This document shows, one piece after another, positions 44,401-49,510 of a DNA stretch of 64,000 nt; the stretch's first letter is position 1, and the number at the start of each line of letters is the position of its first letter. Both the position numbers and the translations under genes were made by a program. Origin of the DNA: a virus (Duplodnaviria; Heunggongvirae; Uroviricota; Caudoviricetes). Below the pieces are notes generated by a model, which was not told the origin of the DNA, did no database searches, and was given only the letters and a program-made list of their open reading frames with translations. The DNA lies in the IMG/VR virus record IMGVR_UViG_2636416131_000001, positions 32,831 to 96,830 of that record; one strand, written 5' to 3'.

Positions 44401-44819
44401 CCTTTTTGACCGAACATTTCGCGAGCGTGTTCGGCTGCTTCGGTCCGTTGCGCCTTTACATCCTCTGGTATAGCCTTCCTGCGTCGTTTTTTACCATTTG
44501 GTGTGGTTGATTTGGCCCGCTGTTCCTGTTGAGCAACATCTTCCTGAACTACACGAGAAACGTCCCCTAAATTAAGCCGTTTCATTGCGTCAACAATAGG
44601 GTCTACTGATGGCGCTTTGGCCACAAAGTCAGGCCGGGAATTTTCGATTGTGTGATTTAATGCCGACACGCTGCGAGAGACAGGATCAACAGTAGCAACT
44701 CGCCCACCTTTCAAATCTTCAACAGCTTCCCGGATACCAGCAAGCTCTTCCAGCTCTTTTGCGCTGGCGGTTTCAACTGTCCTTATAACATCGTCAATGT
44801 TGGCGTTTTTTCTTTCCAT
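41445..44819 (-). CDS. sit: Sit, injected lytic transglycosylase / tape-measure-like protein
   Basis: 1124 aa; SLT-domain motifs (AVASAESSAGQRTG, GAFQITKGT, AYHAGMGHV); Gly/Ala/Lys-rich central repeats. Confidence 0.85.
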   Translation of the reverse strand: MERKNANIDDVIRTVETASAKELEELAGIREAVEDLKGGRVATVDPVSRSVSALNHTIENSRPDFVAKAPSVDPIVDAMKRLNLGDVSRVVQEDVAQQEQRAKSTTPNGKKRRRKAIPEDVKAQRTEAAEHAREMFGQKGGAQKSQNQRDARGRFIGKSGSKAAAEDARAERAEKARRKEDDERLNAESGLLKKLSKVAEGIGNPSETRAVDALGYAVAGPLWAAGKELGGISKEVGGSLNGARKSIADVIRGNDDNSRRKGFFRRKSQNSADVVQVNTQKRTVQELQDQTSEIKEGNDKILSALDQIAKNTGKKKGGLLSKLFSLLGKGAGGVASLLMGRGMLKKAGALAFGALGAKKLVGMLRGGGKKTLAHEGGDLAARAAGKLGLKAVGKGALRAIPLVGTVAGGIYDAVTGWNDTEAQRRAFGLKSGQDPSFQQKAAYTLANVLDLGGLVSGISSAIGDVLKSLGFEDIGNMLQSFSTESIAQAIDSGITNLETYISNLGDTISTKFDDYTAKIGDAVSAWFSDTSNKLLEKLDAIKDFFTVDNLKQVFSDAIDSAIDFIKNPGKHIKEAASNIWDGVKNLPGKALDAAVDAVKNTPAAMIVSKIPNPIGEANAKEITPELKAPVNSQQGTSDSKAESDAKQTNIAARVINAALDMAKDSNKTVKETANQIINANAVETGNKAAQTIDAALGQSATGKEEALSAYEIDKRRFNNGKDVSLPKLNAAGYQWISDNADYFDELERKYGLEKGILSAVASAESSAGQRTGNPVDKNGNKLSSALGAFQITKGTREDLGLSDADAMDTRKAADGAARYLSILMNRYNGDQGRAIAAYHAGMGHVDKGRVVAGTGEYVTRVRGYQQMLNNGAVYGSKVDHSAPAIHEKIPDNAVIDQSTGLAFTPGDSPFEKGGLVDKIGNAVGVNDLVNKFMNGRGMRREVVQGTLEERARGKGTATAAGNVYVDTPMPVEEARPVASNSSYFDQLGAQMGIDGLFDKLRNSPGMRKNNVPEPASTSQVTTAANDLQQPTGRMQIDGQVISDLGGSGAKPTMQLADNTVSLDGETKRLFAQMTSLLARIEEHTKDSAKGQGTVVKVSTPQPGVMRTVPLSIDDPLMNDYARVD

Positions 44820-47139: not shown

Positions 47140-48324
47140 TCAAGCCTTAAGAGGCTTTGTGTATGTTCGTGTAATCCAACCAGTAATAAACTCATCCCCT
47201 GATTTAACCTGCACGTAAAGCCATTGACGATCTTTCTTATCTAAAATAGCAACAATTGTGTTTTTGCCAATGCATTCAATCACTTCACTATTTAAAGAAG
47301 GACTGACATGTAATCTTACGTTATCACCAGTTATAAACCTAAAACCATTGAGATCTTCCCACTTAATTTCTGTGTTTTCTTTAATTAATTTTTGTTTTGA
47401 TATTGGTGCATCCTCATATAGGGATACAGAATATGATTCTGTCTTGTGTATTTGCGATAAGATTTGTTCTTTTGCATAATCAGCAATAGCGCCAAGCACC
47501 ACTTCTGTTAAAAGCCACATAATAATAAACTGAAGCGGGTGAGGGAGCGACTTAAATGAATCAATGAACGTCGAACTGGATTTATTTAATCCTTTGTCTT
47601 GAACATCACTTTCGTTGTGAGATGTTTCAATAGCACCTTCGACATAAGCCTGTGCAATTGATGAAAGACTTTGCTCCATTATTTGATGTAATGAAGCCTT
47701 TTGCGCTAGGGTATATTGTTTTAATGATTCTTTTATTTCATTGTTTAAATCTATCTTATGACTTACATTTTGTCGCAATTCATTAAGTATTGCTTGCATG
47801 TTATTTAAACCAGCTTGCTTATTAAGCATCTCGAACTGGTTTCGTAACGGCATAGCAATTTCTGCCTGCTTCCTTAGCATTTGAATGTATTTATTTGCAT
47901 CATGCGGGGGATAAACCTTGGCCTGTTTCTGTAGAATTTCAAGAAATTCACGATGCTTGCTATTTATTCTTCTCAAGCTCGTCATGTTCGCAAGCTGTTT
48001 TTTAACAGAATCACTAAGTAACGATTGCAAATTCAATCTTGCTATTTGTTCTTGAGCTAGCCGCCCTATTCTTAACTGTTCTTGCAAGTTTGCCATATGT
48101 TCTCTATACGATGGAATGATTGCGTTTTTTTGCAGTTCTGCCAACTGTCTAACCAAATTATTAGAAGCATATTCTGATTTTAATAAATCACTTGCCGATG
48201 TATATCCTGGCATTTTGATTTTACTTAAATTATCACGCCAGGTAATATTTGAATCTCTATTATAGAGATCGCTTACTGAGCCAAGTGCAAGTTTTTTAAT
48301 ATCCTTCACTTTATTCACCGTCAT
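47140..48324 (-). CDS. bitopic membrane protein: N-terminal coiled coil, single TM helix, C-terminal SH3b-like domain
   Basis: 394 aa; Gln/Leu-rich heptads; TM FIIMWLLTEVVLGAIADYA; C-terminal WEDLNGFRFITGDNVRLHVSPS...GWITRTY; AT-rich; start overlaps upstream gene stop by 14 nt. Confidence 0.6.
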   Translation of the reverse strand: MTVNKVKDIKKLALGSVSDLYNRDSNITWRDNLSKIKMPGYTSASDLLKSEYASNNLVRQLAELQKNAIIPSYREHMANLQEQLRIGRLAQEQIARLNLQSLLSDSVKKQLANMTSLRRINSKHREFLEILQKQAKVYPPHDANKYIQMLRKQAEIAMPLRNQFEMLNKQAGLNNMQAILNELRQNVSHKIDLNNEIKESLKQYTLAQKASLHQIMEQSLSSIAQAYVEGAIETSHNESDVQDKGLNKSSSTFIDSFKSLPHPLQFIIMWLLTEVVLGAIADYAKEQILSQIHKTESYSVSLYEDAPISKQKLIKENTEIKWEDLNGFRFITGDNVRLHVSPSLNSEVIECIGKNTIVAILDKKDRQWLYVQVKSGDEFITGWITRTYTKPLKA

Positions 48325-48817
48325 CTTGCTTTAAACATCCATCATTTTTAGCTTCCTTGTAAATACTTGAAATTCCATCAAGAGAGAATGATGTAATTCG
48401 ACGCGATCCGATATATACATCCATGTTTTTTTCTTTTGTGGCTGACGCTGACTTCCAAAAAGAATACCATTCCCTACGATTTGGAGCAGTGTTTTGCGTA
48501 CCAATATTAAAGCTATCCGAACCAACAATTAAGGTAATTACATCAGCTTTACGAGAAATTGTGTCGCGTGTAGAAAAATCAGCATTCTCTTTCCCTCCAC
48601 TTACATACAAATTTCTTCCAGCTATATGATCTTCGGAACCTTCCCTTGCTCCAGCATCACAAGAAAAGTTAATTGTATAACCATCGTCATTGGTTGCAGA
48701 GATTTCTCTCCACCCTTGCTCACCTCCTACCGTCCAAACGGTAGAACCTGCCATTGCTGATAATGGCAGAAAAGAGGACATTAATAAAAAGCTATACAAT
48801 GACTTATATAATTTCAT
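48311..48817 (-). CDS. secreted protein, operon partner of 47140..48324
   Basis: 168 aa; Sec signal peptide MKLYKSLYSFLLMSSFLPLSAMA; TATAAT-like -10 upstream; AT-rich. Confidence 0.6.
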   Translation of the reverse strand: MKLYKSLYSFLLMSSFLPLSAMAGSTVWTVGGEQGWREISATNDDGYTINFSCDAGAREGSEDHIAGRNLYVSGGKENADFSTRDTISRKADVITLIVGSDSFNIGTQNTAPNRREWYSFWKSASATKEKNMDVYIGSRRITSFSLDGISSIYKEAKNDGCLKQDDGE

Positions 48818-48905: not shown

Positions 48906-49397
48906 TTATGGAGCTACACCCGGCCCCCTGGCTCGTTCTTCAAGCGTACCCTGCACGTTTTGATGGCGCATTCCTGGGGCATTTCTGATTGAGTCAATGC
49001 CATTTCTTCCAACATCTTCTTTATTAACGGCATTGCTCGCCACCAGCACACCCCAGCTAGGGATAGCAAAATCAGGAGCTGTTTCGCATGCCTTTACCAT
49101 ATAATCGAAAGTGCTTCGATTGATCTCATTTGCATCGGGGTTTAATAGGCGAGAATATTGGTATTTAGCATTTGCGTTGGTTGAGACTTTATACAGTTCC
49201 TGCTGCACCATCGCTTCAGAAAGTTTAAGGCGCTTCATATCTGACAGTAACTTCTTGCGCATGGATTCGTCTTCACTGACAGCAAATCCGTAAACGTGCC
49301 CAAGGTATTTCGTATAATCGGTACAAATCTCCTTTACGCTTGATGCTGCATTAACAGTCCCAGCCATAAATAATAACGGTAGTAATAGTTTTCTCAT
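48906..49397 (-). CDS. secreted protein with Sit-like C-terminal motif (occupies the sim position)
   Basis: 163 aa from ATG 49397 (AGGTGAGG SD); signal peptide MRKLLLPLLFMAGTVNA; C-terminal GMRHQNVQGTLEERARG matches Sit GMRREVVQGTLEERARG. Confidence 0.6.
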   Translation of the reverse strand: MRKLLLPLLFMAGTVNAASSVKEICTDYTKYLGHVYGFAVSEDESMRKKLLSDMKRLKLSEAMVQQELYKVSTNANAKYQYSRLLNPDANEINRSTFDYMVKACETAPDFAIPSWGVLVASNAVNKEDVGRNGIDSIRNAPGMRHQNVQGTLEERARGPGVAP

Positions 49398-49493
49398 TAT
49401 AACCTCACCTGCCTTATAACTCATTTAGGGTACATATTTTCGCCTTTAAAAAAAAGAGGTTATTAGATCCAATTGTGCATTTATTAAACAAAC

Positions 49494-49510
49494 AATGCTC
49501 TAATAAATTT
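49494..49510 (+). promoter_or_regulatory. C1 operator (Op51-type) upstream of c4
   Basis: AATGCTCTAATAAATTT, 16/17. Confidence 0.65.

Follow-up and report, generated by a model that had tools for sequence, protein, structure and literature searches.

The 64,000-nucleotide stretch of DNA analysed here (the window) derives from a P1-like phage-plasmid: an E. coli plasmid matches the C-terminal query from its Sit protein at 100% identity, and its sim/immI region is ~96% identical to that of P1 over the aligned parts. The features identified are listed in Table 1. The simA-family gene lies between pmgC and the c4/icd/ant (immI) operon, the site that simA also occupies in P1, Ro157, JK004, and seven divergent P1-like contigs. 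A sequence-only reading of this DNA had placed the gene at the sim position beside the immI operator, and the presence of an identical Oc4 confirms this placement. Both simA and sit are encoded on the minus strand, a point on which that reading was silent. The open reading frame around simA spans 48906..49424 (172 aa); no Shine-Dalgarno sequence or other ribosome-binding site was seen for the ATG at 49424, and the start at 49397 (MRKLLL..., 163 aa) is preceded by the Shine-Dalgarno sequence AGGTGAGG at 49403-49410. The 163-aa product is matched by phrog_3933 ('simA domain protein') over aa 1-162 (E=1.9e-113), and 29 SimA homologs with identities of 53-98% were compared. The counterpart of the P1 promoter PsimA was absent from the list returned by a consensus promoter scan of the window.

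Table 1. Features of the sim and sit regions in the window
Feature	Position	Strand	Remarks
sit, tape-measure protein with SLT lytic transglycosylase domain (1124 aa)	41445..44819	minus	phrog_2533, full length
Sit motif copy 2, first half only, aa 999-1011: KLRNSPGMRKNNV	41787..41825	minus	in ~45-aa partial tandem duplication
Sit motif copy 1, aa 931-955: KFMNGRGMRREVVQGTLEERARGKG	41955..42029	minus	~85 aa after SLT domain
SLT catalytic domain of Sit, aa 742-847	42279..42596	minus	PF01464, E=2.3e-14
394-aa protein (phrog_7086), optional third cassette gene	47140..48324	minus	one hydrophobic span (~aa 263-285) and C-terminal SH3_3
Secreted YfjT-like protein (168 aa, phrog_3429)	48311..48817	minus	downstream partner of full-length simA; PF27224 YfjT on orthologs
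Full-length simA-family gene (163 aa, phrog_3933)	48906..49397	minus	ORF and translation, profile match
SimA copy of shared motif, aa 136-160: SIRNAPGMRHQNVQGTLEERARGPG	48918..48992	minus	BLASTP, PHROG profiles
Predicted Sec signal peptide of SimA: MRKLLLPLLFMAGTVNA	49347..49397	minus	cleavage after VNA, mature start ASS...; judged by eye
Counterpart of P1 predicted sigma-70 promoter PsimA	49462..49488	minus	2 mismatches to P1 feature; prediction only in P1
C1 repressor operator Oc4: AATGCTCTAATAAATTT	49494..49510	plus	identical to annotated P1 operator; between simA and divergent c4-icd-ant operon

The annotated SimA of P1 has 52 aa, of which residues 1-45 are identical to the N-terminus of the window SimA. 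Identity between the two genes stops at about codon 45, with the junction near AATCCATGCG, and the P1 sequence then runs into simB (compared stretches: window 49230-49424 and L001 2790-3110). Judged from this alignment, P1 simA is the 5' stub of a larger gene of 163-246 aa, whose full-length form is present in the window. The sequence-only reading had pointed to P1 Sim for comparison; the common locus and the orthology with simA were borne out, but the gene is not an ortholog of the exclusion gene (SimC). In the GenBank record of P1, SimC is labelled 'superimmunity' and SimA merely 'putative accessory', and the database labels for SimA are 'hypothetical' or 'simA domain protein'. Neither full-length SimA nor a motif common to SimA and Sit is mentioned in the literature searched on sim, Sit, and tape-measure mimicry. 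The GC content of the sim region is 33-42% versus 47-50% in the flanks, in agreement with published work in which the sim region of P1-like plasmids is variable and GC-poor (PMC9603915, PMC6906374); simA is an accessory, low-GC cargo gene.

The window's own locus was surveyed together with loci from IMG/VR, GenBank, and metagenome assemblies. In 52 of the 55 loci with full-length simA, the YfjT-like gene lies directly downstream. Every locus with truncated simA has simB, either alone or together with simC, and none has the YfjT-like gene; simB and simC are absent from the window, where no similarity to either was found. Because full-length simA with the YfjT-like gene and simB-simC never occur together, they represent alternative cassettes at one site. 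The products SimA, SimB, SimC, and YfjT-like all start with a signal-peptide-like sequence, and on this gene content the sim locus is occupied by one of two mutually exclusive cassettes of predicted secreted proteins.

The gene for the 394-aa protein, which overlaps the upstream gene by 14 nt, is present in 14 of the 55 loci with full-length simA and also in locus L013 of the E. coli plasmid NZ_LR890336.1. Its product has a long N-terminal region ahead of the hydrophobic span and may be a membrane-anchored wall-binding protein; the SH3_3 match scores 26.0 bits against a cut-off of 27, and the SH3_3 region also matches the C-terminal portion of a phage amidase family, with a score below the threshold. 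Some sim loci, such as L013 (10204-10554), encode an additional multi-span membrane protein of 116 aa between simA and the YfjT-like gene. PADLOC-DB and NCBIfam gave no match for any of the three cassette proteins (SimA, YfjT-like, and 394-aa), and a search for copies of virion proteins in SimB, SimC, the YfjT-like protein, and the 394-aa protein found none. In PLSDB, the Sit C-terminus was detected in 477 plasmids, some form of simA in 267, and full-length simA in 126, i.e. in about a quarter of the P1-like plasmids. The window allele of simA belongs to a cluster of 153 sequences and was found in 22 plasmids at an identity of at least 99%. A scan of species-representative genomes revealed no SimA outside P1-like or contaminant contigs.

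SimA begins with MRK as the n-region, followed by a hydrophobic core and by VNA immediately ahead of the predicted cleavage. The protein therefore looks exported by inspection of its sequence, as the sequence-only reading had claimed in proposing a cleavable signal peptide. No lipobox (L-x-x-C) is present, and no 19-residue window exceeds a Kyte-Doolittle value of 1.6, i.e. no membrane span was detected. C25 and C104 are invariant across the SimA family and would fit a periplasmic disulfide. We infer that SimA is periplasmic. In the AlphaFold2 (AF2) model, aa 19-125 form a helical domain with pLDDT above 90, followed by a tail with pLDDT of 54-60 that is strongly basic (pI 11.4). This predicted arrangement of a helical domain and a flexible tail suits peptide display. 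Fold searches detected no relative of the helical domain. A match to PF14566 (PTP-like phytase) at aa 25-109, scoring 25.4 bits against a cut-off of 27, was rejected as spurious, because fold searches gave it no support; the same sub-threshold match is precomputed for many SimA homologs.

Members of the SimA family share a conserved domain (aa 1-130), which is followed by a near-universal N-[AS]-[PR]-G-M-R-[HQ]-Q. Beyond this core, they continue either with x-V-[EQK]-G-[TS]-[LM]-x-x-R-A-R-G-x-G or with an unrelated Cys-containing tail, the latter replacing the second half of the motif in five lineages. The second half is degraded in one SimA (GALERRALG), whose companion Sit has an intact motif; another SimA (P0028) matches the longer Sit form through ...GTSTAMGN. 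Four database variants of 205 aa (P0004, P0007, P0008, and P0016) show a frame shift at or just after the motif (e.g. ...NAPECAIKTCRV...) and then a common alternative tail; these are either assembly errors or real frameshift alleles.

Sit is the tape-measure protein of P1 (PMC9024508, PMC12810830), and its SLT domain is thought to do in P1 what the gp5 lysozyme does in T4 (PMC9024508). The window Sit shows the characteristics of this family, namely an SLT domain, a length of ~1100 aa, and a gene position between pmgB and the baseplate genes. The ~45-aa partial tandem duplication that gave rise to the second motif copy is specific to the E. coli P1 lineage. In all divergent Sit proteins, including those in which a different version of the SLT domain has been swapped in, this domain is followed by K-F-[ML]-N-x-x-G-M-R-x-x-x-V-Q-G-T-L-A-E-R-A-Y-G-x-G-T-T-T-x-M-G-N, and the E. 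coli P1-lineage proteins have EERARG where the divergent ones have AERAYG. In P0159, a Sit that is 36% identical over the C-terminal part, the motif stands out as an island of conservation (NAPGMRHQVATGSMADRAYGMGT). A still more distant tape-measure protein from Citrobacter contains two diverged tandem copies, LIRNAEGNRHQVSA and KIANAEGLRHQASA. The motif was found in the Sit of all 59 readable loci, regardless of whether simA is full-length, truncated, or absent. This makes the motif a Sit element and SimA the protein that copies it.

The Citrobacter protein has 1171 aa, with the cores NAEGNRHQ and NAEGLRHQ, and is encoded on the Citrobacter freundii plasmid NZ_CP145667.1 (L087 6737-10252), which is not among the SimA tblastn matches; a DUF1778/GNAT toxin-antitoxin pair lies near the gene. 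Among P1-like elements, the SLT domain of Sit exists in two distinct versions, with or without a DKNGN insertion (42279-42596 compared with L003-L009), and the segment after it is conserved; this alternation indicates that the catalytic module of the tape-measure gene has been exchanged in a mosaic fashion. The lengths of 1124, 1223, 1231, 1240, and 1257 aa seen among close relatives (P0036, P0051, and P0061) suggest insertions or repeats upstream of the C-terminal 430 aa, possibly reflecting different tail lengths. A protein search with full-length Sit returned only near-identical proteins among the matches listed, and a 145-aa Sit fragment searched against a set of 5.8 billion proteins returned frameshifted fragments only. 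An AF2 model of the last 430 aa of Sit (7 sequences, a shallow alignment) has a mean pLDDT of 50; the SLT domain is moderately folded, and the motif region and everything after it fall below 50. Single-chain AF2 models of SimA and Sit, likewise from shallow alignments, gave no confident contact for the motif, a result that speaks neither for nor against its docking on the SLT domain.

The SimA product ends in ...SIRNAPGMRHQNVQGTLEERARGPGVAP, and the corresponding residues of Sit are GRGMRREVVQGTLEERARGKG (aa 935-955, at 41955..42017) and LRNSPGMRKNNV (aa 1000-1011, at 41787..41822). In the sequence-only reading, the Sit motif was placed at 41961..42011, with a second copy nearer the C-terminus; both copies are present, and the former extends over the range given here. 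The run of ten identical residues reported there (QGTLEERARG) is also present and is in fact one of 11 (VQGTLEERARG). BLASTP aligned SimA aa 122-162 with Sit aa 921-957 (21/41 identities, E=9e-8) and SimA aa 134-148 with the second site of Sit at aa 997-1011 (E=0.002). When SimA was compared with all 505 six-frame ORFs of the window, Sit was the sole non-self match (E=3.9e-6), and simple patterns of the motif occurred nowhere else in the window except for one chance N..GMR. The PHROG profiles matched reciprocally, with the Sit family hitting SimA aa 127-162 and the SimA family hitting Sit aa 923-964. The full motif is [FIL]-x-N-[AS]-[PR]-G-M-R-[HQ]-Q, often followed by V-x-G-T-L-x-x-R-A-x-G. 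Within the SimA family, the first half (N-x-x-G-M-R-H/Q-Q) is near-universal and the QGTLEERARG half occurs in a subset only.

An HMMER search of 1.84 billion representative proteins with a 40-position profile built from the Sit and SimA families gave 10 matches (E<=0.001): three Sit clusters, three SimA clusters, their fragments, and a repeat protein judged to be spurious. A scan of 2.9 million viral contigs for the back-translated exact core NAPGMRHQ located 37 stretches, all on P1-like contigs. The sequence-only reading had judged the match to be far beyond chance and would have abandoned its interpretation if the motif were a common or low-complexity signal; because the motif is private to Sit and SimA among the 1.84 billion proteins, that judgement holds. 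The motif has the properties of a short linear motif, being short, predicted with low pLDDT in both proteins, forming an island of conservation, and limited to Sit and SimA. The copies in the two proteins look homologous rather than convergent.

Over 57 nt, the simA and sit motif copies in the window share 70% of their nucleotides; of the 15 residues identical between them, 9 are specified by different codons. A 94-kb contig of a distant lineage contains both genes, with NAPGMRHQAVKGSMAERARGDGT in SimA and NAPGMRHQVATGSMADRAYGMGT in Sit; here, 17 of 23 residues are identical, and 11 of the 17 use different codons. The claim that the peptide, and not a recent recombination tract, has been conserved is thus upheld in both lineages, and recent gene conversion between sit and simA was ruled out, the DNA having diverged at synonymous positions. 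Each family uses 2-6 codons for each of the invariant residues N, G, R, and Q; in SimA, for example, there are six for Arg and four for Gly. This diversity of synonymous codons at invariant residues argues that the peptide, not the DNA, is maintained, and the codon pattern is that of purifying selection on the motif peptide over a long divergence. Some lineage-specific states are common to SimA and Sit of the same genome: in the E. coli lineage both have EERARG, and in the distant lineage (UViG_2871745582) both have GSMA. In a permutation test of cognate pairing with six full-motif pairs, only 10 of 720 permutations were as good as the observed pairing, and the first half of the motif in 11 pairs gave p=0.17, phylogeny being uncontrolled in both. 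The co-variation of SimA and Sit at the sequence level is only suggestive.

SimA is a candidate exclusion protein. The reading that we favour, tentatively and as one that falls a little short of probable, is that motif-bearing exported SimA interferes with the Sit-dependent entry of superinfecting P1-like phage. SimA would be a periplasmic accessory protein composed of a compact disulfide-bonded helical domain and a flexible basic tail that displays the motif. The Sit motif, old, conserved, repeat-prone, and located just after the SLT domain, would lie in a segment that enters the periplasm early upon tail contraction; by analogy with other contractile tails, this segment may leave the tail early and work in the periplasm. 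The SimA tail would then occupy the binding site normally used by the Sit motif. Candidate sites are a host envelope component, peptidoglycan, Sit itself, or a different part of the incoming tail tip. In a genome-wide loss-of-function screen of E. coli, LPS genes and dnaJ were the only ones reported for P1 (PMC7553319), i.e. no non-essential envelope factor beyond LPS; this points mildly towards a partner that is essential, structural, or carried by the phage. The resident phage would be spared, since it produces and assembles its Sit in the cytoplasm, away from SimA in the periplasm. The context of the locus (the sim site beside Oc4, low GC content, alternative cassettes, and signal-peptide-like starts) fits an exclusion role, and the binding of T4 Imm to its tape-measure protein provides a precedent for targeting a protein of this kind (bioRxiv 10.64898/2026.03.06.709160). 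The YfjT-like neighbour may be part of the mechanism. Against interference, P1 itself has only the 52-aa SimA stub and it is SimC, not SimA, that is labelled superimmunity; moreover, universality within the SimA family is limited to the first half of the motif, and the co-variation is weak. No PADLOC, NCBIfam, or structural match pointed to a defence role of SimA. In its most specific form, which is somewhat doubtful, SimA would be the first superinfection-exclusion protein to display a docking-peptide copy of the invader's tape-measure protein, its periplasmic tail saturating the site for the Sit motif and keeping incoming P1-like genomes from crossing the inner membrane. If this is true, N-x-x-G-M-R-H-Q is an entry-critical contact of P1-family tape-measure proteins.

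Such a decoy, which the sequence-only reading had proposed as competition for a host envelope receptor or partner, is plausible, and direct poisoning of Sit or a shared envelope-binding module fits the observations equally well. SimA might inhibit incoming Sit directly, either by blocking the SLT domain as Spackle does with the gp5 lysozyme or by dominant-negative co-assembly with the motif region. The position of the motif directly after the SLT domain points in this direction, as does its repetition within tape-measure proteins, which would suit self-association or multivalent contacts; known exclusion proteins bind tape-measure proteins directly, P1 entry has no known non-essential host partner, and the suggestive cognate matching of SimA and Sit also fits. 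We nevertheless regard direct inhibition as unlikely; AF2 (with shallow alignments) docked the motif neither on the SLT domain nor on the SimA domain, and SimA does not resemble Spackle, Ivy/MliC-type inhibitors, Ltp, or Imm in sequence or fold. It is less likely still that the motif is a shared module for anchoring to the envelope, i.e. to peptidoglycan or an abundant periplasmic component, and that SimA has no exclusion role but serves, for example, in lysogenic conversion together with the YfjT-like protein. A general motif of this kind would be expected in other envelope proteins but was found in none of the 1.84e9 representatives, and the locus is the known exclusion locus of P1, even though the basic SimA tail, the peptidoglycan-cleaving domain adjoining the Sit motif, the tight coupling of SimA to the secreted YfjT-like protein, and the SH3_3 of the optional third cassette gene would all accord with anchoring.

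The tail of simA could also be a historical relic that arose from sit by duplication or gene conversion and has been kept without a function of its own. The two genes lie 4-7 kb apart in the same orientation, lineage-specific variants are common to sit and simA of one genome, the tails beyond the motif are mosaic (so that recombination breakpoints may cluster there), and Sit itself duplicates the motif segment. Synonymous sites are, however, near saturation while the residues remain fixed across lineages down to ~40% identity, and the window allele stops 5 residues after the motif yet is widespread; a relic is accordingly very improbable. The shortness of the match is all that speaks for a chance or compositional resemblance, and the private, reciprocal, profile-level matches already refute it, leaving a probability that is negligible for practical purposes.

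In contractile-tailed temperate phages such as P1, the passage of DNA across the periplasm and the inner membrane is largely unexplained, and Sit is not resolved in recent P1 virion structures (PMC12810830). The present analysis identifies a peptide of ~25 residues that is present in conserved form in all P1-family tape-measure proteins examined and is copied by a predicted exported accessory protein at an exclusion locus. This shared peptide offers a precise mutational target in simA and sit and a ready peptide probe for the partner. In addition, P1 simA is redefined as a stub and the sim locus as the site of two alternative secreted-protein cassettes. The full-length simA carried by 126 of the 477 P1-like PLSDB plasmids may affect cross-exclusion, and so the spread of resistance-bearing phage-plasmids.

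As a phage envelope protein at an exclusion locus, SimA is of a known kind; the proposed device, in which the target's own peptide is copied, would be new. A close comparison is with the sim operon of P1 (SimA, SimB, and SimC). The locus, the promoter region, the C1 operator, and the first 45 simA codons are the same, whereas the P1 SimA stub lacks the domain and the motif, and the window lacks simB and simC. Work by Kliem and Dreiseikelmann in 1989 and by Maillou and Dreiseikelmann in 1990 is said to have identified P1 Sim as a processed, exported protein that blocks P1 after adsorption. T4 Spackle (Sp) is likewise small, exported, and helical, and acts in the periplasm on the tail lysozyme gp5. 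It has no sequence or fold similarity to SimA and, to our knowledge, copies no peptide of its target. Homology of SimA to SimC, SimB, or Spackle was not found.

Like T4 Imm, TP-J34 Ltp and HK97 gp15 are phage envelope proteins that stop genome entry via the tape-measure protein. Ltp, gp15, and T4 Imm are membrane proteins or lipoproteins, whereas SimA has neither a lipobox nor a membrane span and no detectable homology to them, and SimA, unlike these proteins, would act through a copied peptide of the target. The case also resembles the short-linear-motif mimicry of viruses, in that a short conserved peptide, placed in a flexible region with variable flanks, is found in two otherwise unrelated proteins; here, however, the copied motif comes from the phage's own virion protein and not from a host protein.
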